DNA from: Azolla caroliniana
Lineage: Eukaryota; Plantae; Polypodiophyta
DNA: 64,000 nt
NCBI GenBank assembly: GCA_043228905.1
Contig: JBHGNT010000007.1
Location: forward strand, 21,948,001 to 22,012,000
Reading direction: 5' to 3'
In this document: positions 17,623 through 62,798 of the stretch, in pieces
Position numbering within the stretch: position 1 is the stretch's first letter
Layout: each line of letters starts with the position of its first letter
Notes under the pieces: generated by a model
Seen by the model: only the letters and a program-made list of their open reading frames with translations
Database searches by the model: none
What the model was told of the DNA's origin: nothing
Made by a program: the position numbers and the translations under genes

Positions 17623-18041
17623 CCTAAAAGCACCCCCTCACTTTTCATAAACCCTAAAAGCACTCCCTCACATTTCATAAACCCTAAACGCACCCCCTCA
17701 CATTTCATAAACCCTAAAAGCACCCCCTCGCATTTCATAAACCCTAAAAGCACCCCCTCGCTTCTCACAACCCTAAATTACCCCTCACTTTTCATAAACC
17801 CGAAAAGCACCCCTTGCATTTCATAAACCCTAAAAGCACCCCGTCACTTTCTCATAATTCCTAAAAGCACCCCTCACTTTTCGTAAACCCTAAAATACCC
17901 CTTCACTTTTCGTAAACCTTGAAAGCACCCCCTCACTTTTCGTAAACCCTAAAAAATACCCCTTCACTTTTCGTAAACCTTGAAAGCACCCCTCACTTTT
18001 CCTAAACCCTAAAAATACCCCTCAGTTTTCATAAACCCTAA
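17623..18041. repeat. ~30-bp minisatellite (~14 copies), each carrying a telo-box AAACCCTAA
   Basis: Consensus TAAACCCTAAAAGCACCCCCTCACTTTTCA, repeated up to ~80 bp before the PPR ATG. Confidence 0.9.
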
Positions 18042-18118
18042 ATTGCCCCTCCTTGTTCAAATTTCCCTCTGTCCCTGTCTCTGTCTCTGTGTCTTTGTCT
18101 CCCTCGCCATGGAAGGGT

Positions 18119-20029
18119 ATGGAACGCCTTGTTCAGAAGCTCTGCGAGCAGGGTCGCCTTCATCAAGCTCTCCATGTCCTCTCCCGTCACTGCGGAACAC
18201 CCGTCTCTGACTCCACTTATCTTTGCCTCCTCAAGGCTTGTAACACTATACCAAGAACAAGAAGAAGAGGACCCCACGGCCATGGAAATTCCACCGTCGT
18301 TCAAGAATTGACCCATCGGGTCTATGCACATATCCAGAATCATAGATCAAAACCCAGCTTTAATGGCTCCCTTGGAGATCATTTGGTTATGAGCCTTGCA
18401 AGGTGTGGATCCATGGAATCTGCCCTCGGAATCTTCGCTTCTTTGTCGGAGAGAACTGTCTTCTCGTGGACGGCCATCATCACTGCTTATTCGGATTCTT
18501 GTACAAAATCTGACAATGCATTAGCCCTAAGAATGTATGAATGCATGCTTATGGACAATGTCTGGCCAAACGGATTCACATTCGTCGCGCTTTTCCGTGC
18601 CTGCGCCTGTCTCAGGGACCTCATGCATGGTCAGACATTTCATGTTCAGGCACATGAGCAAGGTCTGGTTTCTGATAATGCCTTTGTGTGTAATGCTTTA
18701 ATCACCATGTATGGGAAGTGTGGGGCCATCATTGAGGCGGACAAAATCTTCTTCATATCGATGATACCCACCCAACGCGATATTGTGACTTGGACAGCCA
18801 TGTTATCTGCATATGTCGATGATGGCCTTGTCGAGGAGGCATTACTTCTATATATGCAAATGATGGAGGATAATTGTAGTATAAAACCCGATCGAGCCAT
18901 GTTAAGTATGGCTCTTGTAGCCTGCCGGATGCTCGCAGAGAAGTCTATGACTACTATCCACTCATCATCAAAAGGAAAGATGTGTTTGGAGATCGGACGG
19001 GCATTACATTTCCATGCACACCAAGAGGGCTTTTCCTCTGATCCTTTTGTCCAGACCAACCTTGTCAGTATGTATGCAGAGTGCGGCTCGATACTTGATG
19101 CTGAGAGTGTTTTCCTTGTATTGATCCAACGAGACCCTGTCGCATGGACAGCCATGCTTGCTGCATATGTCCGGCAATGTGAAGGTCACAAGGCTTTGCA
19201 ATTGTATAAGCGCATACGAATCGAGAAGGCTAGTTTAGATGATGTGATGCTAATGTATATATTACAAGCTTGCTCGGAGAGGAGAGACTTGACGGCATGT
19301 AATGCTGCCCATTTTGATATTGTCTGTGGTGGATATGATGATAACCCTTCCATTGCGTCCACACTTGTTCACACATACGGGCATTGTTCAAGCATAGCTG
19401 ATGCTCAAGACGTCTTTAGCCGGCATCCAGAGCCGGATATTATAGCATGGAATGCTTTCATTTCAGGGCATATAGAGGAGGGGAACATCTCATCAAGCTT
19501 GGAGCTATTCAAAGATTTGAGCCGTACAAGCATTCAACCTGATGGAGTTACTTTTGTACTGATTATTTCAGCTTGTCGCCGTGTGGGCCTTCTTGGAGAA
19601 GCTATAGAGTACCTTCAGTCAATGAGAACTCGATATAATTTGGTTCCAGAGGTGAAACATTATAACATAATCATAGATCTCCTTGGCCGAACAGGGGATT
19701 TTAAAGGAATAGATAGCATTTTAGGAAGCATGCCGATGCGAGCGGATGTGATAATTTGGTGGTGTGTGCTATGTGCATGTCAAGTTCATGGAAATTTTGG
19801 GCTTGCGAAACAAGCATTCAAACATGCCATGAATTTGGAGCCACACCGATCATTTCCGCATGTTATGATGTCGAAGATTTATGCAGAGTCTGGGTTGCAT
19901 GAGTTTGCACCGGAGGTGGAACAGTTGAGGTTGGAAAGAATCAATCCGAACGAAGAAGAGTATGTGCCCAAAAGGTGCTCAACCAAGTGTGTTGAGTCAG
20001 ATGTGTATTCATTGCCATACTTATTTTAA
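18119..20029 (+). CDS. PLS-class pentatricopeptide repeat protein with E domain and no DYW, 636 aa, intronless
   Basis: Repeats of the form NALITMYGKCG...DIVTWTAMLSAY. E1/E2 region DLLGRTGDF...MPMRADVIIW...ACQVHGN. First in-frame ATG at 18119. No HSE/CxDC/DYW motifs. Confidence 0.92.
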   Translation: MERLVQKLCEQGRLHQALHVLSRHCGTPVSDSTYLCLLKACNTIPRTRRRGPHGHGNSTVVQELTHRVYAHIQNHRSKPSFNGSLGDHLVMSLARCGSMESALGIFASLSERTVFSWTAIITAYSDSCTKSDNALALRMYECMLMDNVWPNGFTFVALFRACACLRDLMHGQTFHVQAHEQGLVSDNAFVCNALITMYGKCGAIIEADKIFFISMIPTQRDIVTWTAMLSAYVDDGLVEEALLLYMQMMEDNCSIKPDRAMLSMALVACRMLAEKSMTTIHSSSKGKMCLEIGRALHFHAHQEGFSSDPFVQTNLVSMYAECGSILDAESVFLVLIQRDPVAWTAMLAAYVRQCEGHKALQLYKRIRIEKASLDDVMLMYILQACSERRDLTACNAAHFDIVCGGYDDNPSIASTLVHTYGHCSSIADAQDVFSRHPEPDIIAWNAFISGHIEEGNISSSLELFKDLSRTSIQPDGVTFVLIISACRRVGLLGEAIEYLQSMRTRYNLVPEVKHYNIIIDLLGRTGDFKGIDSILGSMPMRADVIIWWCVLCACQVHGNFGLAKQAFKHAMNLEPHRSFPHVMMSKIYAESGLHEFAPEVEQLRLERINPNEEEYVPKRCSTKCVESDVYSLPYLF

Positions 20030-20535
20030 AGAATGCTTCACTCAGAGTTGTGCTCATTTCTGTGGTCTGAAGACTTTGATTCGAAGTGAAATTGTGGACG
20101 ATGTGACATTTTGAAGGTTGAGTCTTAACAGTGCTACAAAGATCATGGAAATTATCGCATAAAGAACATGACTCTCTAAAACTCGATTGTTTGAAGAGTG
20201 AACATAATGAACATGATATCTAATTAACTAACTGATCCAGGCTAAATTCACCCAATCAACATGAACTGATCGAAACTGTACTGAGTTGAATGAAGAGGAC
20301 GAGGCGGGTACGAAAAATACTCATCAGTAGATATGGAAACTCGGACCTTAGACCAACATAAATTAACAACAAAGCTTATTAAAGCAATGTATATATACTG
20401 CAGCAGCATAAACATAATAGCAGCATTTTGCTGCCAACAACCAAAAGGACCATTCATTTTAATGTTTTTATTTGAAGACAAAAGTGGATATTACTGTGTT
20501 AAATGGATGGAAAGCAGAACATTAAAAAAGCTGAA

Positions 20536-20608
20536 TGCGAATGCAGGGTTTCGAACCCTGTACATCTTGCACGTCAAGCAAGTGCTCTACCAATTGAGCT
20601 ACATCCGC
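20536..20608 (-). tRNA. tRNA gene, anticodon GAC (Val by anticodon) on a tRNA-Ala-like body, copy 1
   Basis: GCGGATGTAGCTCAATTGGTAGAGCACTTGCTTGACGTGCAAGATGTACAGGGTTCGAAACCCTGCATTCGCA folds fully (7/4/5/5-bp stems, A73). A T6 run follows a few nt downstream. Confidence 0.9.
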
Positions 20609-21020
20609 TTATATCAAAAGGGAAGAAAAACTTTTCTATAAAGTTGTCTTTATCACAAAAAGCATCAAGCTCCACACATTCTCTATTATCTCTGCACAAC
20701 ACATGTGTCTGTCTCCACATGTCTATGTCTCCTGAAGGCTTGAAACAAGAAGAATCCACGGCCATGGAAGTTATAGTTAGGCCAAGAAATATCCATGTGG
20801 GTGAAGAAGCTCTACAGAGAAGCAATCTATATATGTATGTATGTATACCAACAAGCAAAAAAGTACCATTCATTTTTCTTTATGTAGAGAGCATGTGGGT
20901 GCGAGAGGATGGAAACAGACCATAGAAAACGTGAATGCAAAATGCAGGGTTTGGAGGCATGTCTGTATGTGTAATAAGGACAGAAAGCAGATAGGGAAGA
21001 TTAAAATATGATGGTGATTT

Positions 21021-21093
21021 TGCGAATGCAGGGTTTCGAACCCTGTACATCTTGCACGTCAAGCAAGTGCTCTACCAATTGAGCTACATCCGC
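21021..21093 (-). tRNA. tRNA gene, anticodon GAC, copy 2 (identical to copy 1)
   Basis: 73/73 identity with 20536-20608 and unrelated flanks. CAA just upstream, TTTT ~15 nt downstream. Confidence 0.9.
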
Positions 21094-22623: not shown

Positions 22624-25620
22624 CTATTCCCAAGCCACCCCCTCACTTTCATGAATAGTGACATGACTTTGAAGCCCCACATCTGTATAGATGTTTGACA
22701 TCAAAATATATGCGCTAGCTTCTTGCTTGAATGCTAAATTAATTACTCGATTGAAGAACTCCTCGGCAAGCTCAACATTCCCACCATGAGCCCGACATGC
22801 TGTTAACACTGACATACAAATTGTGACATCGATTGGCATTGGTATCTTCATCAACATACTTTCTAACCTCCGGAAATCTCCGGCACGTCCAATTCCATCT
22901 ACCAATAGACCATAGTGTCTCAACCCTGGCATCATCTTATACTCTCCTATCATTACTTTGAAATATTCTATACATTGGGAAACAAGGCCATCGTGGCTAC
23001 AAGCTAATAGAATGCAATTGAATGAGACTTGGTCAGGATCTATACCTGACATTTTCAACCTCTCATACATGCACAAGCTACATATTGCATTTCCCTCCCC
23101 AGCGTATCCTTGAATACAAGTCGTCCATAACACAATGTCAGGCTCTTCAAAACCTTCAAAGATTGCTTGTGAATCAAGGGTGCTTGCGCATTTCCCATAT
23201 GTTTGTATCAAACTAGATGCAACCCAAGAAATCCAATCACATGCTGATGCTACAATGTCAAAGTGAAGACATTGGCATAAGGTAAAGCTTCCTATTTCTC
23301 TACACGACTGAAGAACACCCCCAAATGAGTATTCATTGATCGTGCCATCTTTCTTTCGTATTTCACTATAGAGTTGCAAAATCTTTTCATCTTGATGAAC
23401 TTCGATGCAGGCAAAGAGTAAAGCATTCCATGCACTGGGAGTAAGTTCAGGTAATGCCAAAAGCACATCTTTGGCTTTATGGACATTTCCACACTTACAA
23501 TACATGGTCATAAGCATGTTAGCAACAGTAGGCTTGGAAGCATATCCTTGCTTAATCGCATCCATGTGTAATGCATTTCCAATTTCTAATATTATCTCTT
23601 TGTCAGATAATTGAAGAATACTACAGGCGCGAATGGCAAGTGCCACAGTCATTTGATCTTGGATAACTCCCTCTTCAGTTTGCATATCCCTATAGAGTCT
23701 CAATGTCTTCTCCCCTTCACCTTGTTTCAGATATGCTGAGAGAATCGCATTCCAAGATATTGTGTCATGACATGGCATTGCAAAGAAGATACTGTTTGCT
23801 TCTTCAATGGAGCCACATTCAGCATAAGCGGTCAATAATGTGGTGCTGACTATAGGATCAGACAAAAAATCATTTCTTTGAGCAACATCGGCATGTAATG
23901 CTCGACAAATTTCAAGGAAAACTAATGTAGTTAATCTACTCTCTCTGAAGAGAGTTTCTTCCCTCTTTCCAAAGCTACCACATCCCCGGAGGGCACACAC
24001 AAAACTATGTTGGTTTGGTCTCCACCCTTGGACTTGCATCTGCCTAAAAAGTTGCAAAGCCTTCATTCTCTGGTCACTATCCACATAGGCTGATAACAAA
24101 GCAGTCCACAACACTACATCTTGACAAGACAAGGAAGTGAACACATGCTCTGCATCCAATATTGCTCCACATTTTCCAAACAAAATTATAAGGCTTGCAG
24201 CGACCAGCAATACTTGGCCTTTTCTCCAAGCATCAGCATAAACCGACCATCCAATTTCCAAAGACATTGCTTTAGACAACTTTTCTTGTCCAAAAACCGA
24301 CGCAGCTTCTTCGGACTCTGCGAGAATGCTACATGCCTGACAAACACTAACAAAGGCCATGTGGTTGAGATCTACAATTTCCTCTTGCATCTGTCGATAT
24401 AGGCGCAAGGCTCTCTCTGCGAGGCCATGCTCGACATACGCTGATAGCATGGCATTCCAAGTAACAATATCCCTCTGAGAACATTCCACAAAAACCTCCT
24501 CAGCTTTCCTTATATCCCCACAATTGTTGTACATACCCAAGAGTGATGTAGCGACAAAATGACTACCAGACAACAGTTTCTTTGACAGAGCATCCACATG
24601 CAATGCTTGCCCAATTTCTAATGCCATAGCTTTGATTTCTTGTCCATTGGTACGAAAAGCTTTCCCCTTCTCTATAGCCATCATGCCACATGCCTTTAGG
24701 GAATGTACCAACGTGTAAGCATTAGGAACAATGCCTTGTTCATGCATTTGCCTATACAACCATAAGACAAGGTCTGCTCGGTCACCACATTGTTTCAAAT
24801 ATGCAGACAACAGAGTATTCCATGATACAACATCGGGTCTACTCAATGCACTAAACACATGCTCTGCATCCTCAATGGCACCACACTTGCTATACATATC
24901 TACTAGGGTAGTGGCCATTGATACATCATCCAAGAGACAAAGGTCGTTTGAACAGGCATCTGCATGCAATGCTCGGCCAATCTGTAACCACATTATTCCA
25001 TTGTTTATGACATCATTATCATCACTGCCACCATCACCATTACTGTCACCAAGAATGCCACATGCCCGGAAAAGGGTCATGAAAGTCACTCGGTTTACAC
25101 CGGCACCACATTCAACCTTCATCTGCCGATATAAAAGCAACGCTTTCTCAATTGGACCATACTCGACATAAACCAAAAGCATCGCATTCCACAAAAACAC
25201 ATTCAATTGCGAGGCTGAATCCAAAAATATTCTCTCGGATTCTGAGAGGAAGCCCAATTTCCCATACATGCTCACAAGCCCACATGCCACGTATGGATCA
25301 TCTGAGAGACCTGATCTATAAGCAAATCCATGGAGTTTCATACCTTGTACATTACCATTAGACAGGTTTCCACAAGCTTTGAGAAGGCTAACCAAAGTGT
25401 ATTGATTAGGTTGTACACCATCATCTTGCATAAGGTCATATATTTTGAGGGCTTCTGAGCTTGAAGAAGCAGAGATGAGAGTAGTCCATGAGAAAACAGA
25501 CCTGTGTGGGCATTCCATGAAGACATGGATTGCTTGATGAACGAGACCACATCTGGCAAGAGAAGAAATGACATGTTCAGAGACATGAGGTCCTGTGAGG
25601 AGTGTACCAAGGCTGACCAT
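22624..25620 (-). CDS. PLS-class PPR protein with E domain and no DYW, 998 aa, intronless
   Basis: Many P-L-S triplets, e.g. TTLVDMYSKCGAIEDAEHVF...DVVSWNTLLSAY. E region GIGRAGDF...ACRAHGGNVELA...AYILMSNIY. The true start codon is uncertain. Confidence 0.92.
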   Translation of the reverse strand: MVSLGTLLTGPHVSEHVISSLARCGLVHQAIHVFMECPHRSVFSWTTLISASSSSEALKIYDLMQDDGVQPNQYTLVSLLKACGNLSNGNVQGMKLHGFAYRSGLSDDPYVACGLVSMYGKLGFLSESERIFLDSASQLNVFLWNAMLLVYVEYGPIEKALLLYRQMKVECGAGVNRVTFMTLFRACGILGDSNGDGGSDDNDVINNGIMWLQIGRALHADACSNDLCLLDDVSMATTLVDMYSKCGAIEDAEHVFSALSRPDVVSWNTLLSAYLKQCGDRADLVLWLYRQMHEQGIVPNAYTLVHSLKACGMMAIEKGKAFRTNGQEIKAMALEIGQALHVDALSKKLLSGSHFVATSLLGMYNNCGDIRKAEEVFVECSQRDIVTWNAMLSAYVEHGLAERALRLYRQMQEEIVDLNHMAFVSVCQACSILAESEEAASVFGQEKLSKAMSLEIGWSVYADAWRKGQVLLVAASLIILFGKCGAILDAEHVFTSLSCQDVVLWTALLSAYVDSDQRMKALQLFRQMQVQGWRPNQHSFVCALRGCGSFGKREETLFRESRLTTLVFLEICRALHADVAQRNDFLSDPIVSTTLLTAYAECGSIEEANSIFFAMPCHDTISWNAILSAYLKQGEGEKTLRLYRDMQTEEGVIQDQMTVALAIRACSILQLSDKEIILEIGNALHMDAIKQGYASKPTVANMLMTMYCKCGNVHKAKDVLLALPELTPSAWNALLFACIEVHQDEKILQLYSEIRKKDGTINEYSFGGVLQSCREIGSFTLCQCLHFDIVASACDWISWVASSLIQTYGKCASTLDSQAIFEGFEEPDIVLWTTCIQGYAGEGNAICSLCMYERLKMSGIDPDQVSFNCILLACSHDGLVSQCIEYFKVMIGEYKMMPGLRHYGLLVDGIGRAGDFRRLESMLMKIPMPIDVTICMSVLTACRAHGGNVELAEEFFNRVINLAFKQEASAYILMSNIYTDVGLQSHVTIHESEGVAWE

Positions 25621-25747
25621 GGATACTCCTCCTCCTCCTCTTCTTCTTCTTCTTCTTCTGATTCCTCCATCTCCTCTGAAGGAAAAACCACCTCTTTTTT
25701 TTTTCTCAGATGATGACTCTTAAGAAGCTAATTGCATTCATGTAATG

Positions 25748-31525: not shown

Positions 31526-31687
31526 TAGGGTTAGGGTTAGGGTTAGGGTTAGGGTTATTAGGATTAGGGCTAGGACTAGGGTTAAGATTAGGATTAGGGC
31601 TAGAGTTAGGTTTAGGATTAGGTTTAGAATTAGGACGAGGATTAGGATTAGGTTTGGGGTCAGGGTCGGGGTTGGGCTTAGGTTTGG
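31526..31687 (+). repeat. Interstitial (TTAGGG)n-like hexamer tract
   Basis: Perfect TTAGGG x4 grading into TTAGGA/CTAGGG/TTAGGT variants, ~26 hexamers. Confidence 0.9.
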
Positions 31688-44255: not shown

Positions 44256-44434
44256 GTCTCGCTCACTTCTTCCTTCTCTCGAAGAAGTTCCACACCTCTC
44301 ATAGTACTAATCCTTCGTTTAGTACTAATTCCTTCTCTGTCTCAGTACTGTTCATGACAGTTTGAACCAATTTTTCCCTACCTTCTGTCTCTCTCATTTC
44401 CTACTAATCTTTTATTCCTCTTTTCTTTCATCCC

Positions 44435-45586
44435 ATGGCCACTGTTAGCGCTGAAGAATATCAATCTGTTTTCTCGGAATTCCAATGCTTGAAGGAGAAG
44501 TTCCATGCTTTGGAACAAGAAAACCAACGGTTGCTGGGGGATCTTCAGCAAATCTCCTTAGAAAAGCAGCAAACGCAACAACAACATGGGGAACTTGCGT
44601 TACGTGTGCAACAACTCGAAGCCACCATCGTAGCGATGCAACAACATGGGCCCGGAACACAAGGGATTCATAAAGAACCTAAGATTGGCCTTCCCACGAA
44701 GTTCGATGGAACGCGATCGCAGTTTAGAGGGTTCCTTAACCAGGTACGATTAGTTATTCAAATGCATCCTTCCCGATATCCCACCGATGCATCACGAGTG
44801 GGTTTAGTAGGCACTTTGTTAAGTGGCTCAGCCTTGTCATGGTTCGCTCCACTATTAGAAAAGGAATCTCCGTTACTCAACAATTTTGAAGAGTTTCTAG
44901 GTGAGTTTAAAGCATGTTTCGGAGATACTGACAGCATCAGGACCGCAATCAACAAAATCCGGCGATTACGCCAAGGTGACCGTCCAGCCTCCGCATACGC
45001 TGCAGATTTTCGCCTACTCGCCGCCGATATCCCTTGGGATGATCAAGCGTTGATGGAGCAATTCCCTTATGGTTTACGCAACGACGTCAAGGATTTACTC
45101 TTGACCTTCCCCGAAGAGCCAAAGTCCTTAACAAAAGCAATCAGTCGCGCGGTGAGATGTGACAACCGCCTCTTTGAGCGACGTTCGGAACGACAGCTAC
45201 AAATGCCGAGGGCAAGATCAGAGCCCACCTACGCCTCAGTGGTAGCAAGACCTTTTCCGAGGGAGTCATATAATGCGTCTCCAGCGAATACTCCGACTCC
45301 GATGGAGATTGACACTACACGTCGTCGAGGGCCATTATCCGAAGAAGAAAAGCAGCGACGCCGTACAAATCGACTATGTCTTTACTGCGGTGGACCAGGA
45401 CATATCGCAATAAATTGCCCCCATAGGCCAAGAAGACAGGTAAACCAAATAGTCGCTAGTTCTAATTGTACTAAATCCGAGCCTATTTCAGTAGGGATAT
45501 CTGATAGTCCTAATAGTATTAATATCCCAGATCTAGCAAACAAATTTGATGTCCTTAGTCAGTTAGAAGAAGAGTTAAACGACTAA
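44435..45586 (+). CDS. gag: Chromovirus Gag
   Basis: 383-aa ORF with coiled-coil N-terminus, LRQG, PMEID and zinc knuckle CLYCGGPGHIAINC. Confidence 0.92.
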   Translation: MATVSAEEYQSVFSEFQCLKEKFHALEQENQRLLGDLQQISLEKQQTQQQHGELALRVQQLEATIVAMQQHGPGTQGIHKEPKIGLPTKFDGTRSQFRGFLNQVRLVIQMHPSRYPTDASRVGLVGTLLSGSALSWFAPLLEKESPLLNNFEEFLGEFKACFGDTDSIRTAINKIRRLRQGDRPASAYAADFRLLAADIPWDDQALMEQFPYGLRNDVKDLLLTFPEEPKSLTKAISRAVRCDNRLFERRSERQLQMPRARSEPTYASVVARPFPRESYNASPANTPTPMEIDTTRRRGPLSEEEKQRRRTNRLCLYCGGPGHIAINCPHRPRRQVNQIVASSNCTKSEPISVGISDSPNSINIPDLANKFDVLSQLEEELND

Positions 45587-48500
45587 GTCCAGCCAAAATA
45601 GGAGCCGTTTGGTTGGATAACCCTAGATCTGTGCAGCCCATTAGTGGTTCCATTCCCTCTAAGCAAGTTAGTGATGTGTTCGTAGCCCAAGTAATAGTTA
45701 GTACTAAAAGTACCCCTCCAGTACATGTCCTAGCACTCCTAGATTCCGGAGCTAACTCTTGCTTTATGGATAAGAAATTTGCTCAAGCTCATAAGATATC
45801 CCTAAGAAAACTCTAGTGTCCAGCCTCTGTAGTAGTCATTGATGGACGTCCCATTGCTTCCGGAAATATCCTAGAAGAGTCAGAACCCATTAATATTGTC
45901 CTAGATAACTTAGTATGTGTAGTATCATTTAATATTATTAGTATCCCAGAACATCCTATAGTTTTAGGACTACCGTGGTTCGAGTTACATAACCCTGACG
46001 TAGATTGGAGAACAAGAGAAATCCGGTGTCGACAAACCCAAGGGTCAACTCAGAAGATGGCAACCATTTCGCTACGTCAGTTGCATAAAGAAGGGCACAA
46101 GGAGGAAATGTTCCTCTTTGCAATATCAGTAAACCCCTCCAACACCACTAAAGAAGAATCCACCGTTCAACTTCCCGAGAAGTATCGCCATTACACCGAT
46201 GTGTTCGATAAAGTACAAGCCAACACACTTCCTCATCATCGACCGTACGATTGCCCCATCGATTTACAACCGGGAAAAGAGCCGCCATGGGGACCGATCT
46301 ACAATTTGTCACCAACCGAGCTGGAAGTCCTTCGGGCCTATATAGAGGAGAATTTGGAAAATGGTTTCATTTGGCATTCGAAATCTCTAGCCGGTGCGCC
46401 CATTTTCTTCGTCAAGAAAAAAGATGGATCGCTTCGTCTCGTTGTAGATTACTGTGGCTTGAATAAGGTTACAATCAGGAATAGGTATGCTCTTCCCCTT
46501 ATCTCAAGTCTTTTAGAACGGATCAATGGTGCCAGGTTCTTCACGAAGATCGACTTACGGGGAGCATATAACCTCGTACGGATCCGACCAGGAGACGAAT
46601 GGAAGACCGCATTTCGCACCAGATATGGGCACTTCGAGTATACTGTCATGCTGTTCGGCCTCACTAATGCGCCGGCAGTCTTCCAGCACATGGCTAATGA
46701 TATATTCCGAGATCTATTGGATGATTGTTTGATCATCTATTTGGATGATCTACTGGTTTATTCAAAGACCCAAGAAGAACATGATTCTCATGTACTATTA
46801 GTACTAAAACGACTTCGAGAACATGGTCTGTATGCAAAGCTAGAAAAATGTAGTTTCGGGTGCAACCAAGTGGAATTTCTCGGCTACATCATTTCGTCAG
46901 AAGGCATCTCCATGGACCCAGCTAAGGTCAGAACGGTGGTAGAATGGCAGACTCCACGTTCGGTATGGGATGTGCAATGCTTCTTAGGCTTTGCCAATTT
47001 TTATCGGAAGTTCATACAGGATTACTCAAAGATCGTTCTACCTCTCACACAACTTACCAGGAAGGGACAACCGTTCATCTGGTCTGAAGAAACGGACATG
47101 GCTTTCGAGAGTCTTAAAAAAGCATTTACATCGGCTCCAATTCTAGCTCATGTCGATCCGGAGAAACCATTCATCATCGAAGCTGACGCATCGGATTTTG
47201 CATTGGGGAGCATTCTGTCACAACAGGGGAATGATGAAAAGCTACATCCTGTGGCTTTTCACTCACGCAAGTTTGATGCCGCCGAAATCAACTACGAAAT
47301 CTATGATAAGGAGCTATTGGCAATAGTGGATTCTTTTATGCAATGGAGGCATTTTTTGGAGGGATCCTCTCATCCAGTCACCGTATTTAGTGACCACAAG
47401 AATCTTGCCTACTTTCAGGATGCTCGTGTGTTGAATTGACGTCAAGCTCGGTGGGCCCACTTCCTCACGCGTTTCGACTTCAAAATTACATATCGTCCGG
47501 GGAGGCACCAAGGGAAGGCAGATGCATTATCACGGCGTTCGTATCTAGCACCCCGTCCCGGCGAGCCAACTTTCGATAACCAAAAACAAGTCATCTTGGG
47601 ACCGGCACGATTACAAGCAACACAAATCTTTGACATGCCTATGGTATCCCGCGTTGTCGATACCATACGTGAAGACTTGAAGACAGATGCGTTCGCCCAA
47701 GCTATACTAGCACAAATTGATCCCTCTCGAGCGTCGTGTTCACAGTCGCAACCACCAGGTACGGACTATCGGCAATTCAAATACCATGATGGATTACTCT
47801 TCTTTAAAGAACTTTTGTATGTTCCTAATGGTTCTTGCCGCCTTCGAGTAGTACAAAACTGTCATGACACATATACAGCTAGGCATTTTGGTAGTACTAA
47901 AACATTACATTTAGTACAACGATCATTCTGGTGGCCCTGTATGCGACAATTTGTCGAGGATTTTGTTCGGACTTGTGATACATGTTGCAGAGCGAAAATG
48001 CCAAGGCATCATCCATATGGTTTATTAGAACCATTATCAATTCCAAGCAAGCCGTGGCAATCCATTGCTCTAGACTTCATCACAGATCTTCCAGTCTCTA
48101 AGGGGTTCAATGCGATTCTAACGGTGGTCGATCGATATACGAAGATGGCTCATTTCTTGCCATGTACTAAGGAGATCTCCAGTGAAGACACTGCCGAAAT
48201 TGTCATGCGTGAAGTATGTCGGCATCATGGACTCCCCGATAGTATCATCAGCGACCGTGGACCCCAGTTCGTGTCAAAATTCTGGAAGCACCTTTTTAAC
48301 ATGCTCAAGGTCACTTGTAACCTCTCTTCCGGCTACCACCCACAAACTGACGGCCAAGCTGAACGAACAAATCAAACGTTGGAGCAGTATCTGCGGTGCT
48401 TTCTCAGCTATCATCAGGACGACTGGGCAGATATTCTCCAGTTCGCCGAATTTGCCTATAACAACTCTATCCACGCATCCACTAAAGTTACGCCATTTTA

Positions 48501-49170
48501 TGCTTATACGGGATGTCACCCCCAGTGGAGTGTACTTGAAACCCCAGAGGTGTCCACAAATCCGTGCGCGGAGGATCGTTTGGAGCGGTTACGCAAGATA
48601 CAAGCGGATTTATCTACTCATCTCCAGCAAGCTCAACAAACACACAAGGTCTACGCGGATCGTCATCGACTTCCATCTAGTTTTAATATTGGAGATCGGG
48701 TGTGGTTGCTACGACGACACATCAAGACTACTCGCCCATGTGAGAAGTTGGATTATCGGCGATTAGGTCCTTTCCGTATTATTGGAAAGATTAATGATGT
48801 TGCTTTTCGTCTCGATCTACCTCCTCAACTTCGGATACATCCGGTGTTTCATAGTTCTCTCTTCGAACCCTACCACGAGAGCACCATCCCAGAACGTCTT
48901 ATCCAACCTCCACCCCCGATCGAGCTTGAAGATGGGCCGGAGTACGAGGTTGCCGCCATTCTTGATTCCAAGATTGTTCGCAACAAGCTCTACTATCTAG
49001 TCGATTGGCTAGGCTATAGTCCCAGCGAACGTACTTGGGAACCGATCGAGAATGTAACCAATGCTCGTGCTCTTCTTGAAGACTTCCATCGTCAATATCC
49101 ACACAAACCGGGTCCTCAATCCAAGACGACTCGTGACACTCGTCGTTTTAAAGGGGGGATAGTGTCATGA
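45580..49170 (+). pseudogene. pol: Chromovirus Pol (protease, RT, RNase H, integrase, chromodomain) with two nonsense codons
   Basis: ORFs 45613, 46057 and 47596 share one frame, -1 relative to gag, split by TAG 45814 and TGA 47437. Motifs LLDSGA, YLDD, DASD, HHCC, DFITDLP, SDRG, and chromodomain YEVAAILD...YYLVDWLGY...TWEP. Confidence 0.92.
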
Positions 49171-51554: not shown

Positions 51555-53832
51555 GTTGAATTACTGTATCGTTTTGGAGACCTCCATCGACTTATGTACA
51601 TGAAATCTAGACTCCGTTCGGTAAGGTACCTTATCTCCTTGAATTAGGGTGCAACTGGGGTTGAATCCGTGACCTCTTGGAATGCAACCGATTGCTCCAT
51701 GAGTGAGATATAGACCCGCGCACAAAAGAAACATTACGTCATAATTCTACATTGATTCATATAGAAGAAATCCAGTCGAATTATTATGTCGTTTCAGATA
51801 TCTCCATCTGGGTAGAAGAGTGTGTTCGGGAAGACACCTCATCCACTTCAATCAGGGTGCAACCGGAGTTGAACCCGTGAGATATCGGACTGCAATTCTT
51901 TGGTGTACCTCTTATCTATACATGTGTGCATAACAGAGACATTACTTTGCAAACCTCCTTTGATGCATGTACAAGATGTCTAGTCGACTAATGTTTCATG
52001 TACATGAAATCTCAATTCCGTTCGGTAAGGCTCCTCATCTCATTCAATCATGGTGCAATGGGGGTTGAACCGCTGACCAATCAAACTCCTGCTGATTGCT
52101 CTACCACTAAGCTATACACCTGCGCAAAAAGGGAACATTTCATCGCGAACCTCTATTGATTCATGTACAAGAAGTCCAATCAAATTATTATGTTGTTTCA
52201 CATAGCTCTATCGATTCATGGACATCAAGGCTAGAGTCTATTTAGCACACACCTCATCATCAGACACCTCCATTGATTCATGTAGATGAATTCTAGAGTA
52301 TGTCCGGTAAGGCACCTCATCTCTTTGAATCAGGGTGCAACTGGGGTTGAACCGGTGAGCTATCAGACTGCATCTGTTTGTTCTACCTCTGAGCTATACA
52401 CGTGTGCACAAAAGAAACATTACTTCGCAAACCTCCTCTCATTCATGTACAAGACCTCTAGTCGACTTATTATGTCGTTTATGAGACCCCCATCGATTCG
52501 TGTAAATGAAATCTAGACTTCGTTCGCTAAGGCTCCTCATCTCCTTGAATGAGGGGTCAAACCGATGACTTATCAGACTGCAGCCGATTGCTCTACCACT
52601 AAGCTATACACCCGCGCAAAAAGGGAACATTACGTTCCAAACCTCCATTGAATCATGTATAAGACGTCTAGTCAAATTATTATGTCGTTTCGGAGACCTC
52701 CATCGATTCATGTACATGAAATCTAGACTCTGTTCGGTATGGTACCTCATCACCTTGAATAAAGGTGCAGCTGGGGTTGAACCGGTAACCTCTCGGACTG
52801 GAGTCAACTGCTCTACTAGTGAGCTATACACCCACACACAAAATAAACATTATGTCGCAAACCTCCACTGATTCATGTAGAAGAAGTCCAGTGGAATTAT
52901 AATGTTGTTTTGGATATTTCCATCCATGTAGAAGAGTGTGTTTGGTAACACACCTCATCCCCTTAAAATAGGGTGCAACCGGGGTTGAACCGGTGAGCTA
53001 TCGGACTGCAGTTGTTTGCTCTACCTCTGAGCTATACATGTGTGCACAAAAGAAACATTACTTCGCAAACCTCCTTTGATTTATATACACGATGTCCAAT
53101 CGACTTATTATGTCATTTTTGAGACCTGAAACCTCCTTTGATTCATGTACACGATGTCCAATCAACTTATTATGTCGTTTCCAATACCTCCATCATGTCA
53201 TTTCCGAGACCTCCATCGATTCATGTACATAAAATCTAGATTCTGTTCGGTAAGGCTACTCATCTTATCACTAAATCAAGGTGCAGTCGAGGTTGAACTG
53301 GTGACCTATCAGACTGCAACCCATTGCCCTACCATTGAGCTATAAACCAACGCACAAAAGAAACCTTACGTCGCAATCATCCACTGATTTATGTAGAAGA
53401 AGTCCAGTCGAATTATTATGTCATTTCGGATATCTGCATCGATTCATGTACATGAAATCTAGAGTGTGTTCGGTAAGGCACCTCATCTCCTTGAATTAGG
53501 GTGTAGCCAGGGTTGAACATGTGAGGTATCGGACTGGAGTGGTTTGTTCTGTCTCTGAGCTATACACGTGTGCACAAAAGAAACATTACATCGCAAACCT
53601 CCTCTGATTCATGTACAGGACGTCCGATTGACTTATTATGTCATTTCTGAGACTTCCATTAATTCATGTACATGAAATCTAGACCCCGTTCGGTAAGGCT
53701 CCTCATCTCCTTGAATCAGGGTGCAACCGGCGTTGAACCGATGGCCCATCAGACTGCAGCCGATTGCTCTACCATTGAGCTATACACCGGCATAAAAAGG
53801 GAACATTACGTCTCAAATATCCATTAAATCAT

Positions 53833-56800
53833 TGTTGGAAAACAAGCTCAACATTGGCCGGATCGGCTGTGCAAGCTGAGAACCGGATCGGTTGGGATCG
53901 ATCAGTTAGGCCGGACCGGTGCGTAAACCGGTGCGCAGACAGGTACACAATGAGAAGTCGTAGTGGTGCGTAAACCGCAAGGCCGTTGGGAAGATATTCC
54001 GCATAGGAATATATTTTGGGAGTTAGTGTAGAGCTCACTTATGAGCATTGAAGTACGTGTCAGTACTTCAATGCCCAAATTTAGTGGCCAGAAGGCACAA
54101 ATTTGTGAAGCCTGCCAACTAGGGAAGTAACACCGACTTCCTTTTCCCAATGAGCATAACTGGAGCCGGAACAAGCTCGACTTGATACATTCCGATGTAT
54201 GGGGGCCGTCACAAAACATTAGTCTTGGCAAGAGTCGATACTTCGTCTCCTTCATCGACAACTATACGCGACACACGTGGATCTACCTCATTGAGAAGAA
54301 GAGTGAAGTCTTCGACTGTTTCTGGGACCTCAAGAGTTTCGTCGAAAGGGAAACAGGAAGAAAGATCAAGTGCTTGCGGTCGGATGGCAGAAAAGGGTAC
54401 TTTTCTGGTCAATTGAATGAGTACCTGCAACAGATGGGAATTCGGCGCGAATTCAGTTGCAGATATGCGCCGGAACAAAATAGCGTGGCCGAAAGGAAAA
54501 ATTGGTCAGTTGTGGAAGCGGCGCAGGCAATGCTGGAAGAAAAGAGCTTGCCCAAGTTCTATTGGGCCGAGGCGGTACGAACCGCGGTATACATCTAGAA
54601 TCAGATCGGAGACAAAGTTTCGGCGCATGAGCAGTATTTCGGAAGGAAGCCGAACCTACGACACTTGAGAGTCTTCGGTAGCATTGCGTATATGCATTTA
54701 CCAAAGGAGAAACGGAGGAAGTTGGACGCAAAAGCCGAGAAGTGTATCTTGGTCGGTTATTCAGACGAGCAGAAGGGTTATAAGTGTTATAACCCTCGCA
54801 CCAAACAAGCGCGCGTGAGCTGCGACGTTGTGTTTGACGAGTCCGCGTCCTGGTACTTGCCTCCGACTCCGGACCTCACCTCCAATTCGAGTTCTGACGA
54901 TGAGGTTAGCGAGGCCGAGATGCCTCTGGATGAGCCTAAAATCGGGACCCCCGAAGAGAGTCCGATTTCGTTTCGGTTAAACGAACCGAATGGACGACTG
55001 AGTCGGATCGACCAGTCCGATGAAGAGCCGGCGAGTAGTGGAGACTCGACTGTGCATTCCCCACACAGGACGCTGAGGAGACGGCTTACGCGCAAGGAAA
55101 AAGGGAAGAAGAAGGTGTCAGATTACGACATGGATAGGAACGAGTTGGATCGACGCGAGTCCGACTCCGAGGGAAGTGATGACGGGTCTTTGGGAGCGAA
55201 GTCCGCGTCGGCCAAGAAAGCCTCAACTTCAGCTAATGAGCAATTACGCCAATCTACCTGCCAGAATAACCTTGTTGTACGATTCGGTTACAACGAGTAC
55301 ATGGCGCATCACTATGCGTACATAACGCGTGTAGCGGAAGTGCGTGAGCTAGAGAGCTACGCGGAAGCGGCAAAGGATGCGAATTGGCGTGCCGCGATGG
55401 AGGAAGAGATGCGCGCATTGGCGGAAAATGAAACCTGGGACCTGGTTGACGCACCGAAAGGTGTGAAGCTGATCGGATGTAGGTGGGTGTATAAGTTCAA
55501 GTACAACACTGACGGCTCGGTCAACCGATACAAGGCCCAGTTAGTAGCAAAAGGTTACTTGTAGCAACACGGCATTGACTACGATGACGACCGTCCGTGT
55601 TTTGCTTGCAGTAGCTGTGACGAAGGGGTGGCACTTACATCAGATGGATGTAAAGAATGTGCCATTCCTACAAGGTGAGCTTGAGGAACATGTGTACATG
55701 GTACAACCCCCCGGATTTCACTCCGAAACGAACACTTCGGCGGTGTGGTGATTGAAGAAATCCCTTTACGAACTAAAGCAAGCTCTGCATGCCTGGAACG
55801 CGAAGATCACGCATCAACTGTGTCGGATGGGCTTTGCGACATCGAAATCAGACTCCTCATTGTTCATCCGGAAAGGTCGACTCGGGCCGGTTAGTATTTT
55901 ACTTTATCTTGATGACTTGGTCATCACCGGCGCCGACTTGAGTGAAATCAACAGTGTGAAGCTCCAGCTTGCGGCATCATTCAACATGAAGGATCTGGGG
56001 GACCTTCATTGCTTCCTCGGGATCGAAGTGATCCGTACCCCCGAAGGCATACTAATCAACCAACGGCATTACGTGCTGACTATGCTCTTCAAATTCGGGA
56101 TGGTTGATTGTAAGTCTATCTCGACTCTAGATAGAACCGTCAAGCTTCACCCCAATTTCGGAAAGGTATGCGACCCGACGAGGTTTCGACAGATAGTCGG
56201 AAGCCTTATATACTTGACCATCACCCAACTAGATCTCAGCTACCCGGTCGGGGTGATTAGTTAGTTCATGGCGTGACCTACCGAGGAGCATCTTCAGTGT
56301 GCGCAACGCGTACTGCGGACCGGGGGCTACTATATTGGACCAGTGCAGCCCCGAAGTTGGTCAGCTACACCGATGCCGACTGGGCCGGCAACATCACCGA
56401 TCGTCGATCCACGTCCAGTTTCACGTTCTCTCTTGGGAGTGCCGCGATCACGTGGAGTAGCAAGAAGCAGCCGACAATTGCGCTGTCGAGCACCGAAGCT
56501 GAGTATAGAGGAGCGGTTGTCGCGACATGCGAAGCCATATGGTTGAAGTGGCTACTTAAGGATCTCCAAGTGGAGGTATCCGATCCAACGACAATCTACT
56601 ACGACAACCTCAGTAGCATCCAGCTAGCAAAGAACCCCGTCTTCCACACCCGGACTAAGCACATTGAGGTGCACCACCATTTTTTCTGCGAGCGTGTACT
56701 CTCCGGTGAAGTCGAACTTCAGTATGTTCTGACGGATCGGCAGACCGCCGACGTCTTCACCAAGCCTCTTGGTTTGGACAAGTTACGACAATTCTCAGGT

Positions 56801-57735
56801 GCGCTTGGGTTGCGTCACCTCGACGTGCCGAACTTGAGGGGGAGAGAAGTCCCGAATGACCACGGAAGGGGGAGAGAAGTTCTAGAAGACCGCGACGCTG
56901 AGTTGAATGACGAATTAGATTTCGGATCGGCTGAAGAAGCTGAGGGCGGATCCGCGGAAGATTCTGAAAGTGGACATAAGGGGAGCAACCGAAATAAAAG
57001 AGACGAAGCCATCAAGGGCGAGAGACCGAAGATGAGTTGGAGATAACCAACTTGGACGAGAGGGAAAACCGATCGGAGGAAGCCGAGTCGGTTCGGATGT
57101 TTGATTCGAATACGCTGAATCAACCAAGGGCCAAGCGGAAGAGAAGGCAACAGAAGAGGCGCCAACACCGCAACAACACGGAATCTGAGAAGGGCCGTGT
57201 GAGGAGACAAGCCGACCGGAGCGCGAGCAAGGTGTGAAGCCAGAAAGAACCAGAGCGTAGATCTGGAAGAGCGTATAGAACCTCAAGTTGAGCTTGAGGG
57301 GGAGTGTTGAGAAACAAGCTCAACATTGGCCGGATCGGTTGTGCAAGCCGAGAACCAGATCGGTTGGGATCGATCGGTTAGGTTGGACTGGTGCGTAAAC
57401 CGGTGCGCAGACGGGTACGCAACGAGAAGTTGTAGCGGTGCGTAAACCACAAGACCGTTGGGAAGATATTCCGTGTAGGAATATATTTTGGGAGTTAGTG
57501 TAGAGCTCACTTATGAGCATTGAAGTACGTGTCAGTACTTTTGTCAATCCGTATGGACTTGTATAAAAGTGCTCACTGAGCACATCCGATTTATAGATTG
57601 AGTATTATTTTGAATTGATTTTTCTTTGTGTTCTCTCTATGTCTCTCCCGTGTACTGTGTATATTCAAGCTCTCCATTAAACTTGCGTATTTTCTGTGTT
57701 CAGTTTTCTATTGCTTCCGCACGCTATTCTTTACA
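53833..57735 (+). mobile_element. Ty1/Copia element with internal deletion (gag and protease lost), inserted in the tRNA array
   Basis: TSD ATCAT at 53828-53832 and 57736-57740. The 5' LTR is truncated at ~54069 and fused to integrase (CEACQLGK, IHSDVWGP). RT (QMDVKN, LYLDD) and RNase H (YTDADWAG, ALSSTEAEY) follow. PPT GAGGGGGAG, 3' LTR 57305-57735. Confidence 0.93.
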
Positions 57736-58980
57736 ATCATGTATAAGATTTCCAGTCGAATTATTATGTCGTTTCGGAGACCTCCATTGATTCAAGTACA
57801 TGAAATCTACACTCCTTTCGGTAATGTACCTTATCTCCTTGAGTTAGATTGCATACGGGGTTGAACTAGTGACCTAACGAACTACAACCGATTGCTCTAC
57901 AAGTGAGCTATACACCTGCGCACAAAAGAAACATTACGTCGTAAACCTCCATTGATTCATATATAGAAGTTCAATCGAATTATTTTGTTGTTTCGGATAT
58001 CTCCATCCATGTAGAAGAGTGTGTTCGGTAAGGCACCTCATCCCCTTGAATCAGGGTGCAACTGGGGTTGAACCGGTGAGTTATCGGACTGCAGTTGTTT
58101 GCCCTACCTCTGAGCTATACACATTTGTAGAAAAGACACATTACTTTGCAAACCTCCCTTGATTCATGTACAAGATGTTCAGTCGTCTTATTATGTCGTT
58201 TCCAATACCTCCATCGATTCATGTACATGAAATCTCGATTCCGTTCGGTAAGGCTCCTTAGCTCATTGAATCTCAAGACCAATCGAACTGCAGTTGATTG
58301 CTCTACCAGTGAGCTATACACCCACGCAAAAAGGGAATATTACATTGCAAAACTCCGTTGATTCATGTCCAAGAAGTCTAGTCGAATTATTATCTCATTT
58401 CACATAGCTCTATCAATTCATGTACATGAAGGCTAGACTCTGTTTAGTACACACCTCAACTTTGGACACCTCCATCGAAATCTAGACTTTGTACATGAAA
58501 TCTAGACTTTGTTTGGTAAGGCACCTCACATCCTTGAGTCAGGGTGCAGCCGGGGTTGAACCAGTGACCTATCGAACTATAGTCAATTGCTCTTCCACTG
58601 AGCTATACACTCGCACACAAAAGAAACATTACGTTGCAAACATCCACTGATTCATGGAGAAGAAGTTCAGTCAAATTATTATGTCATTCCGGATATCTCC
58701 ATCGATTCATGTATATGAAATCTAGAGTGTGTTCAGTAAGGCACCTCATCTCCTTGAATTAGGGTCCAGCAAGGGTTGAATTAGTGAGCTATCGGACTGC
58801 AGGTGTTTGTTCTACCTCTGAGCTATACATGTGTGCACAAAAGAAACATTATTTCGCAAACCTCTTGTGATTCATGTACAAGACCTTTGATCGACTTATT
58901 ATGTCGTTTCTGAGACCTCCATTGATTCATGTACATGAAATCTAGAGTCTATTCGGTAAGGCTCCTCATCTCCTTGAATC

Positions 58981-59052
58981 AAGGTGCAACTGGGGTTGAA
59001 CCGGTGACCTATCAGACTGCAGCCGATTGCTCTACCACTGAGCTATACACCC
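58981..59052 (-). tRNA. One of the best-preserved tRNA-Cys(GCA)-like copies (possibly pseudo)
   Basis: A and B boxes are intact, anticodon GCA, U73. It has G1-U72 and one T-stem mismatch. Confidence 0.55.
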
Positions 59053-61177
59053 GCGCACATAATTAACCCTTTCTTAATCACATAATTAGGTACTAATTAA
59101 CCCTTGCTGAATTACCTAATTCTTAACACTCTACCATTAGGCTATACACCCACGCACAAAAGAAACATTACGTTGCAAACCTCCATTGATTCATGTCCAA
59201 GACGTTCAGTCGAGTCACAAACATCCATTGAATTATGTAGAAGAACTCTAATCAAATTATTTAAAGTCATTCCACGCACCTCCATCTATTCAAGTACATG
59301 AAAATTAGACTGTGTTCGGTAAAGCAACTCATCTCCTTGAATCATATTGCCGATGGGGTTGAACTGGTGACCTATCAGACTACACCTGATTACGCTACCA
59401 CTCGGCTATACACCCACACACAAAATAAACATTACGTTGCAAACCTCCATTGATTCATGTACAAGACGTCCAATCAACATATTATGTCATTTCCGAGACC
59501 TCCATTGATTCATGTACATGAATTCTAGACTCTGTTCGGTAAGGCTCCTCATCTCCTTGAATTTAGGTGCAGTCAGGGTAGAATCGGTGACCTATCAAAC
59601 TGCAGCCAATTGCTCTTTCACTGAGCTATACACCCACGCACAAAAGAAACAGTACATCGGAAACCTCCATTGCTTCATGTACAAGACGTGCAATCGTCTT
59701 ATTATGTCGTTTCCGAGACCTCCATCGATTCATGTACATGAATTCTAGAGTCCGTTTGGTAAGGCTCTTCATCTCCTTGAATCATGGTGCAGCCGGGGTT
59801 GAACCGGTGACCTGTCGGACTGTAGTTGATTGTTCTTCCACTGAGTTATATACCCACGCACAAAGGGAACATTACGTCGCAAACTTCCGTTGATTCATGT
59901 ACAAGACGTGCAATTGAGTTATTATGTCGGTTCCGAGACCTCCATCGATTCGTTTACATGAATTCTAGAGTCCTATCAGTAAGGCTCCTCATCTCCTTGA
60001 ATCAGGGTTGAACCGGTGATCTATTCGACTGCAGCCGATTGTTTTTCCATTGAGTTATACACCCATGCACAAATGGAACATTATGTTGCAAATCTCCATT
60101 GTATACATTGGCTCTTCCACTGAGTTATACACATGCGCTCAAATGGAACATTACGTCGCAAACCTCCATTGAATCATGTATACGATATCCAATTGAATTG
60201 TTATGTCGTCTTAGAGAACTCCATCGATACATGGATACATGAAATCTAGACTTAGTTGGGTAAGGCACCTCACCTCCTCGAATCAAGCTCCAGGCGGAGC
60301 TGAACCGGTGACCTATCGGACTGCAGCCATTGCACTACCACTGAGCTAGACACCCGTGCACAAAGGGAACATTACGTCATAGACCTCGATTGATACATGT
60401 CCAAGATGTCCAGTTGAGTTATTATGTCATTTCGGAGACCTCCATCGATTCATGTACATGAAATCTAGACTCTGTTCGATAAGGCTCCTTCTTGAATTAG
60501 GGTGCAATCGTGGTTGAACCGGTGACCTATCAGACTGCACCCAATTGAACTACCACTGAGCTATACACCCGCACACAGAAGAAACATTATGTTGCAATCC
60601 TCCATTGACTATTATGTGGTTTACAAGACCTCCATCGGTTCATGTACATGAATTGTAGAGTCTGTTCGGTAAGGCTCCTCATCCCCTTGAATTAGGGTGC
60701 AACCGGGGTTGAACCGGTGACCTATCGAACTGTAGTTGATTGCTCTACCACTGAGTTATACACCCGCACACAAAGGGAACATTTCGTCGCAAACCTCCAT
60801 TGATTCATATCCAAGATGTCCAATAGAGTTACAAACATCCATTGAATCATGTAGAAGAATTCTAATCAAATGATTAAAAGTCGTTTTGCACACCTCCATC
60901 TATTCATGTACATGAAATCTAGACTTCATTTGGTAAGGCACCTCATCTCCTTGAATGAGGTTGTCGACGGGGTTGAACCGGTGACCTATCGGACTGCAAC
61001 TGATTGCTCTACCAATGGGCTATACACTCGTGCACAAAAGAAACATTACTTCGCAAACCTCCATTGATTCATGTACAAGAAGTTCAGTCGAATTATTATG
61101 TTGTTTCACATAGCCGTATCGATTCATGTACATGAAGCCTAGACTTTCTTTAGTACACACCTCATACTTGGACATCT

Positions 61178-62275
61178 TGTTAATGGGTGGGGGGTGTAGC
61201 CTAGAATGGCTTTACCCCCCTCCCAAGGGGGTTACGATAGAGAGAGAGAGAATGAGAGTGAAAATAAGAAATGACACAAAAATGAGAGGGGAAAAAGCTC
61301 CCTCATTATGCCCCATGGGTGGGGTTTATATAGTACAAGAGGTAACCGTTGTACAAATAAAGAATAAGACAAGTATGGAGTTACATTACTTACCCACTTT
61401 CTCACCTTTCTACACGTGCACACAAATGTTACACATACTCATACTCACACACTCATTCATGTTACACATTACACACCTTACACATTATACACCATACACA
61501 TTACACCTTAACCCTCCTGTACACCTATACGGGTAACACTTGGCACGCTTGTGGGACAGTGCATTGCACGTTGAACCCACAAGCCCATGCCAAAAACTCT
61601 TGTTGACCGGAACTCCATCAGTCTTCTCTTCTCTAATGGTCGGAAATCCCTCCACCAGATTACTAGTCTACGATCGATAACTTTGATTGGAGCTGGCTTG
61701 ACACGAACCTTCTCATTCGGTTAGCATATCGCACGATTGGATCGCACACCAATCCTCTTCTCCATTGTGGTAAAGTCGTTTAGGTTTAACAATGATTGTG
61801 GGTGTATGTGCGTGCGTGCGTGCGTGTGTGTGTGTGTGTGTTTTTCTTCATTAGTATGAGTGGTGATGAGTTTTTGTACCCTTGCGTTTCCGAAATTATA
61901 TGTCGTACCCCTCAATTTTTTGAATTTTATTGGTTGCCCTTATGAAATTTAGGCTTATGCCCTCCTATTTTCAAAATTCTATGAGGGGCCTTTGAACTTT
62001 TGAAATTGTCCATGGACCCCTCTGTTGTTTAAGTTTCTTTTTCTTCTACTTTCTTTCTTTCTTTTTTTATTTCTTCTTCATCACTTTTCCTCTTTTCTTC
62101 TTTCTTCTTTCTCCTTCTTCTCTTTTGATTGTTGTCCTGTATGTGTTTTGCTAACTCTGATTTCCACGTTCTCAATTATTTGTTTATGTGAATTCCTTTC
62201 CCTCTTCTTTTCTCCTTCGGTCATTCGAATGTTATTTGGCCGGCTTTCCCTTGGTCACATCTTGGTTGACCCTCG
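61178..62275. mobile_element. Unclassified insertion with an LTR-like left part (TGTTA...TAACA, 61178-61538)
   Basis: Interrupts the 220-bp array. Inverted 5-bp termini, with TATA and CT-rich tract on the minus strand. No TSD or coding remnant recognised. Confidence 0.4.
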
Positions 62276-62798
62276 GTCGTCACTTTATGTGAATCAGGAG
62301 GCAACTGGGGTTGAACCGTTAACCTATCGTACTACAAACGATTGCTCTACCACTGAGATATACACCCGGGCACAAAAGAAATATCACGTCCAAAACTCCA
62401 TTGATTCATGTACAAGTCTTCTAGTGGAATGATTATCTCGTTTCACACACCTCCATCGATTCTTATGTGTATTTGTATGCGGTAATGTATTTGAGAATCT
62501 ATAGATTCGTGCTTGACAAACAACACAGAAGTATCGACTAGAAAGTAGACGCGATATCAACTTTAATGGACGCTCTATTAGTCATCTCTCTCTCTCTCTC
62601 TCTCTGAGACTCGTTACAAAAGTTATCAAGATATCTTACAACGGTAGGTTATTGCTTATATACTAAGTGTCACGACACAACGACATCAAGTACATAGTTA
62701 GTGAGGATTGAACCTGCAACCTCACATTTAGAGGACATCATGCTCAACCATTTTGACATGAGCATACATTTGTATATAATACATAGTCTAGCTTATAG

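Follow-up and report, generated by a model that had tools for sequence, protein, structure and literature searches.

The window analyzed here, a stretch of 64,000 nucleotides of DNA, contains two identical tRNA genes in which an alanine-type body is combined with the valine anticodon GAC. These genes belong to a real and conserved family, and while the remoulding of tRNAs is itself known, no description was found of a GAC form with an alanine body. Judging from the sequence, the chances are about even that the gene is an alanine tRNA remoulded into one that is charged with valine.

The twin genes and their locus

The original prediction placed two identical 73-nt GAC genes in the segment 20536..21093, and both ARAGORN and the Rfam model RF00005 find them there, with the anticodon GAC and with 73 of 73 positions the same (Table 1). 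At 67.4 bits against a gathering threshold of 29, each copy is a member of the tRNA family. The acceptor pairs and loop that had been listed can be read directly from the letters of both copies: G1-C72, C2-G71, G3-C70, G4·U69, A5-U68, U6-A67 and G7-C66, the discriminator A73, and the anticodon loop UUGACGU (U32, G37, U38). The stems, also described as complete, are recovered in the predicted fold (z = -3.9, with none of 200 shuffles equally good), in which the acceptor, D and anticodon stems match the cloverleaf and the T arm has two extra predicted pairs. Both copies have internal A and B boxes that agree with the consensus, as well as a downstream T-run (T6 for copy 1, T4 for copy 2), and neither encodes CCA. 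These are the features of a type-2 tRNA gene of RNA polymerase III.

Table 1. Features of the GAC tRNA locus, in window positions
Feature	Position	Strand	Remarks	Basis
tRNA gene, copy 1	20536..20608	-	alanine-type body, GAC anticodon, G4·U69	ARAGORN, RF00005 67.4 bits, fold
tRNA gene, copy 2	21021..21093	-	same sequence as copy 1; orthologue L001 73/73	ARAGORN, RF00005 67.4 bits
T6 run, likely RNA polymerase III terminator	20524..20529	-	7-12 nt downstream of copy 1	sequence (putative function)
T4 run, weak likely terminator	21003..21006	-	15-18 nt downstream of copy 2	sequence (putative function)
Decayed 3' end of third GAC-type copy (half T arm, acceptor strand) and trailer	20848..20955	-		local alignment; BLAST seed 20941-20952

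The flanks of the two copies had been called unrelated. This is correct upstream, where they align with a score of 15 against a shuffle maximum of 25, but not downstream, where beyond copy 2 lies the decayed end of a third copy, followed by a trailer homologous to that of copy 1 (score 37, shuffle maximum 30). The locus is therefore an old tandem duplication in which one of the copies died while the other two have stayed exact.

Among the 13 open reading frames of the window that were scanned, 10 have Pfam matches; the window contains PPR genes, a UDP-glycosyltransferase gene and the remnants of LINE, Ty3 and copia elements. For the larger PPR protein, the top named matches come from Adiantum and Ceratopteris (34-40%), with a moss and a liverwort below the ferns at 30-31%. 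The tRNA pair sits in nuclear DNA of a land plant, likely of a fern. Two long PPR reading frames flank the pair, at 18035-20029 (+) and 22624-25719 (-), and the larger has a weak E-motif match. Elsewhere in the window are a Ty3/gypsy element at 44408-49170 (+), whose gag, RT, RNase H, integrase and chromodomain are spread over three frames or over pieces divided by stops, and an internal degenerate telomere-like repeat of the TAGGGT type (31526-31682, about 27 copies). In addition, 26 decayed copies resembling tRNA-Cys(GCA) are arrayed in tandem at 51646-62367 (-) with a period of about 195-220 bp; several of their anticodons have drifted, and a copia-type fragment interrupts the array near 54.1-57.3 kb.

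Conservation and ancestry of the family

Orthologues, proposed in the original prediction as a check, were found both in metagenomes and in sequencing runs. A metagenome scan with a pattern that includes the GAC loop returned two loci. One of these, L001, is the orthologue of copy 2: the gene is identical at 73 of 73 positions amid flanks that are 81% (306/379) and 85% (156/184) identical, and at that divergence a perfect gene match has a chance probability of 2e-7 to 6e-6. The downstream flank of L001, which comes from a related species, also carries the remnant of the third copy. The other, L002, is a separate locus with G2-C71 where the window copies have C2-G71, a two-sided compensatory swap. 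Loose ends in runs X1, X2 and X13 resemble the downstream flank of L002, and organisms A and D likely carry an L002-type locus as well. Among the rows listed, which leave out organism B, a 68-nt core is identical (68/68) in runs of organisms A, D, G and H; in G and H its flanks are unrelated and partly very GC-rich, and the ends read G2-C71. Runs X11 and X12 contain orthologues of copy 1 whose listed differences are confined to the flanks, and X11 has in addition a GAC copy with deletions of 1 and 9 nt. Both full variants and all of the 68-nt cores seen retain the G4·U69 pair, while pair 2:71 varies. Within the window, the roughly 26 tRNA-Cys-like copies, all drifted and all different, serve as a control for the exact GAC pair. 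The compensatory stem change and the selection that had been proposed are both apparent in these comparisons, which show a gene family under purifying selection. In runs X1 and X2 a further 5' end, aligned at window position 21091, reads G1-U2, which suggests that there is a fourth locus and that position 2 can have a third base.

The number of copies is estimated from contigs rather than from a whole genome. Contigs that match the gene at 80% likeness number 12-13 per run in X1, X2 and X13 and 28 in X3, and the 64-kb window has two full copies only. Over the core, the contig depths add up to about 2-4 times the flank depth, which is not a measure of copy number; in three runs guessed to be RNA, contigs extend at a depth of 2-3.5 into genomic flanks with no CCA join, and these have no bearing on expression. 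As far as contig counts can tell, the GAC genes are a low-copy family and not a repeat family.

An anticodon-free pattern taken from the 5' half of the gene and run on IMG/VR and GTDB gave 26 matches in 18 loci, every one with an alanine (xGC) anticodon. Most of these are eukaryote-type genes, taken to lie on giant-virus or contaminant contigs; two of the loci (L015 and L020), on short contigs of an alphaproteobacterial MAG, consist of eukaryote-type tRNA-Ala genes in tandem, with AGC, CGC and UGC anticodons intermixed, and are likely eukaryotic contamination. The GAC gene is identical at 53-59 of 73 positions to the 17 distinct full-length ungapped alanine genes (the nearest, L017, at 59/73, or 61/73 for the L002 variant). 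A second pattern, with the GAC loop fixed, gave 23 viral-collection loci, one of which yielded no gene call; the Val-GAC genes from these loci are identical to the GAC gene at 44-50 of 73 positions, and one Val-AAC gene at 32. Over the 26 positions that neither pattern fixes, the GAC gene agrees with alanine genes (17 distinct sequences) at a median of 17 and with bacterial Val-GAC genes (5 distinct sequences) at a median of 10. In a 63-row tree with bases 34-37 masked, the GAC gene falls among eukaryote-type alanine genes with support of 85/78, which is not strong and lies below the tool's bar. The reference sets for both the position count and the tree were picked by query-derived patterns and hold neither a named plant alanine gene nor a cytosolic plant valine gene.

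Like eukaryote-type cytosolic tRNA-Ala (AGC, UGC or CGC), the GAC gene has the same D arm and acceptor pairs 5-7, U32·U38, and the alanine-family marks A15/A48 and C49-G65; it differs from the fetched alanine set in its anticodon and in G37, A26 and U29-A41. The acceptor stem differs as well. Each of the 17 alanine references has G3·U70 and G4-C69, whereas the GAC gene has G3-C70 and G4·U69, so that the loss of the AlaRS determinant G3·U70, as originally predicted, is seen in both copies. A tRNA with alanine acceptor ends, differing by 8 positions over 63 nt, occurs in runs of the same and related organisms. As had been claimed, then, the body is that of tRNA-Ala: outside the anticodon it is nearer to alanine than to valine genes, and by sequence likeness it is a descendant of tRNA-Ala, although with G3-C70 it does not belong to that family by functional identity.

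Three sources of such a gene other than descent under selection have been weighed. A tRNA-derived SINE was rejected because each run has few contigs, the flanks differ from locus to locus and the window has two full copies; the many decayed copies that would mark a SINE head, raised in the original prediction as a danger, were not found. More generally, the genes might be inactive or selfish copies, pseudogenes or SINE heads whose identity would reflect recent duplication or gene conversion. Fern genomes do contain thousands of tRNA-like sequences (PlantRNA 2.0 preprint), no mature RNA turned up, and both the decayed remnant between the copies and the deleted copy in X11 would fit; but recent copying does not account for gene identity across species despite diverged or unrelated flanks, nor for the compensatory swap at 2:71, and the contig counts are low, which makes this a very unlikely explanation. 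The remaining source is a bacterial or organellar tRNA-Val(GAC) that moved into the nucleus and came to resemble tRNA-Ala by convergence. Plastid trnV-GAC and bacterial tRNA-Val(GAC) share the 7-nt anticodon loop, A73 and G3-C70 with the GAC gene, the adjoining anticodon stem also resembles that of bacterial-type genes, plastid pairs 2, 3, 5 and 6 are those of the L002 variant in the plastid sequence available, and uptake of bacterial tRNA genes is known in ferns and Selaginella (available portions of PMC10027690 and PMC11573648). However, the GAC-gene pattern has no exact match in 185,579 GTDB genomes or in IMG/VR, and BLAST against phages, plasmids and E. coli gave a best near-full-length match of about 77% or lower. 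Apart from its identical loop, the grass plastid trnV-GAC agrees at only about 41 of 73 positions (a hand count from the supplement of PMC6341768, seen in part) and has G4-C69 rather than G4·U69. The GAC gene, unlike these valine genes, is nuclear, with A and B boxes and a T-run, and it has A15/A48 rather than G15/C48. A plastid insertion (NUPT) was rejected for the same low plastid identity and for flanks made up of nuclear PPR genes and repeats. The worry about a bacterial origin is therefore largely settled: transfer from bacteria or organelles appears largely refuted, and we regard it as extremely improbable.

Charging, decoding and destination

The case for valine begins with identity rules. 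According to the available portions of PMC9976931, A35, C36 and A73 are valine determinants, of which A35 and A73 are strong, and Arabidopsis tRNA-Ala is no longer alanylated once its G3·U70 is changed to G3-C70. The GAC gene has A35, C36 and A73, as the original prediction stated, together with G3-C70. Other valine features are missing: G4·U69 replaces U4-A69 or a regular helix, U20 and U45 stand for G20 and G45, and U38 stands for C38. The same portions report that E. coli tRNA-Val suffers significantly from a G·U at pair 3 or 4 and that wheat-germ ValRS also uses or prefers C38 (PMC9976931). With U38 and with G·U at pair 4, both valine routes thus carry a cost. Cytosolic decoding has a further difficulty, in that eukaryotic genomes contain almost no G34 tRNAs for four-codon boxes, plant cytosols read GUU and GUC without them, and in eukaryotic systems those whose bases 32 and 38 are not Watson-Crick partners miscode, although valine is not among the cases given (available portions of PMC7293025).

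For a valine decoder, we infer all steps from transcription onward. The U70-to-C change would have removed alanine charging; RNA polymerase III would transcribe the genes, valyl-tRNA synthetase would recognize A35, C36 and A73, and the charged tRNA would decode GUC and GUU codons with valine. Since the loop, with U32, G37 and U38, is like that of bacterial and plastid Val-GAC and not of the C38 type, an organellar, bacterial-type ValRS and ribosome would be likelier partners than the cytosolic plant enzyme. After import into plastids, the tRNA would replace plastid trnV-GAC, and any alanine loaded through G4·U69 would need to be edited off.

Is there a vacancy for such a tRNA? The available text of PMC9134734 reports that Schizaeales and core leptosporangiate ferns have lost plastid trnV-GAC and that plastid trnV-UAC was validated in few samples; the host plant has presumably lost trnV-GAC too. 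Given this loss in most ferns and the identity of the loop to that of plastid trnV-GAC, plastid import is plausible. Selaginella imports dedicated nuclear tRNAs into its plastids (PMC11573648, in part). The loss need not be compensated, however, because tobacco plastid trnV-GAC is dispensable through superwobbling, with almost no phenotype (available portions of PMC3499367). Also on the opposing side, the fern Haplopteris keeps a mitochondrial trnV-UAC (PMC10027690, in part). Moreover, a nuclear 'Val-GAC-1' of S. kraussiana has 16-20 normalised reads in three libraries taken as total RNA and 0-5 in plastids (log2FC -3.06; PMC11573648, in part), so that import fails there if it is of the same family. 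Reads of inosine-modified Val-AAC could also be mapping onto that reference, and neither the Val-GAC-1 sequence nor the GAC-gene motif occurs in the supplements of PMC11573648 that were searched. The available part of PMC7678280 lists GAC among the anticodons that S. moellendorffii and Klebsormidium nitens lack. If organisms G and H, with their GC-rich flanks, keep plastid trnV-GAC, the compensation story weakens. Taken together, the identity rules, the loop, the loss of trnV-GAC and the Selaginella precedent favor a valine decoder and, given valine charging, would make an organellar destination somewhat more probable than a cytosolic one.

The real puzzle is G4·U69, which needed a second mutation and is not part of plastid trnV-GAC. 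Through this pair, alanine charging may have been kept, alone or beside valine, with alanine inserted at GUC and GUU as conserved low-level mistranslation. The wobble has moved one step by two changes (U70C and C69U) and stays in place while 2:71 varies, the rest of the body is a native AlaRS substrate, and both types of ValRS have reason to disfavor the tRNA (G4·U69; U38). The earlier claim that some eukaryotic AlaRSs charge G4·U69 tRNAs is supported for vertebrates by the available portions of PMC5802732 and PMC7337962, which attribute the ability to eukaryotic and not bacterial enzymes; plants, however, go unmentioned in the main texts of both, and in mammals mistranslation from G4·U69 is not detectable, the cognate synthetase editing it (PMC7337962, in part). 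G3-C70 blocks Arabidopsis AlaRS, presumably as tested beside G4-C69, and some GAC copies have C2-G71 where every known cytosolic tRNA-Ala keeps G2-C71 (both rules from the available portions of PMC9976931). On this balance continued alanine charging is unlikely. Its fullest version, in which the alanine mark was shifted and not lost and cytosolic AlaRS would charge the tRNA via G4·U69, giving selected Val-to-Ala mistranslation or a dual-identity tRNA in ferns and other lineages, strikes us as rather improbable. It is also doubtful that the gene makes a conserved tRNA-shaped RNA outside decoding, for instance one that donates aminoacyl groups, senses uncharged tRNA or gives rise to tRNA fragments. 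A mixture of identity elements that is a poor fit to both synthetases would be expected of such an RNA, as would the absence of G34 tRNAs from plant GUU and GUC decoding, the miscoding-type U32·U38 (PMC7293025, in part) and the very low abundance of Selaginella Val-GAC-1, if homologous (PMC11573648, in part); on the other side, the anticodon loop is invariant and equal to that of working Val-GAC decoders, and the T arm and all stems are canonical. A retroelement primer-binding site complementary to the 3' end of the tRNA was sought in the window, with none beyond chance.

Relation to known tRNAs

Remoulding of tRNAs by alloacceptor anticodon shifts has reportedly been described before (PMC3923123, PMC4783518). 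In such shifts a duplicate gene acquires an anticodon for a different amino acid but remains nearer to its parent family, as here. What differs is that the parent identity pair lies in the acceptor stem, so that the stem has changed along with the anticodon, and that the outcome, a G34 isoacceptor for a four-codon box, is of a kind nearly lacking in eukaryotic nuclei. The plastid-imported tRNAs of S. kraussiana (plastid-like Pro, bacterial-like Arg and Ile-CAU) are likewise nuclear, with organelle-type features, and offset lost plastid genes, but they arose by gene transfer or by anticodon change within one amino acid, and none in the available account crosses from alanine to valine. The vertebrate tRNA-Thr that is mischarged by AlaRS also combines a conserved G4·U69 with a non-alanine anticodon; that tRNA has a threonine body and ThrRS/ATD editing, whereas the GAC tRNA has an alanine body, is from a plant and has no known editor (PMC7337962 and PMC5802732, in part).

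In full-text literature, a search that leaves PlantRNA, GtRNAdb and most subscription journals outside, an Ala-bodied GAC tRNA of plants is not described. A 13-base loop motif has no literature match and is absent from the supplements of PMC13437025. A GAC tRNA goes unmentioned in the available portions of a 2026 review of plant tRNAs (PMC13578239), of PMC13437025 and of a preprint on import in Silene, as well as in the text of the PlantRNA 2.0 preprint; in the available appendix of PMC13578239, Val GAC stands only in organellar gene tables. The gene may already be catalogued as a plain tRNA-Val(GAC). That is the label it receives from automatic annotation, under which it is easily mistaken for a plastid insertion or a pseudogene.

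tRNA-Ala is a family whose identity lies outside the anticodon. A conserved switch from alanine to valine is for this reason unusual twice over, the other reason being that eukaryotic nuclei hardly ever keep G34 tRNAs of four-codon boxes. If the tRNA is charged with valine and imported, a host tRNA would have been converted from one amino-acid family to another in replacement of a lost chloroplast gene, and the family would offer a way to study how fern plastids import tRNAs. If it is charged with alanine, plants would have a mistranslation tRNA that is kept by selection.
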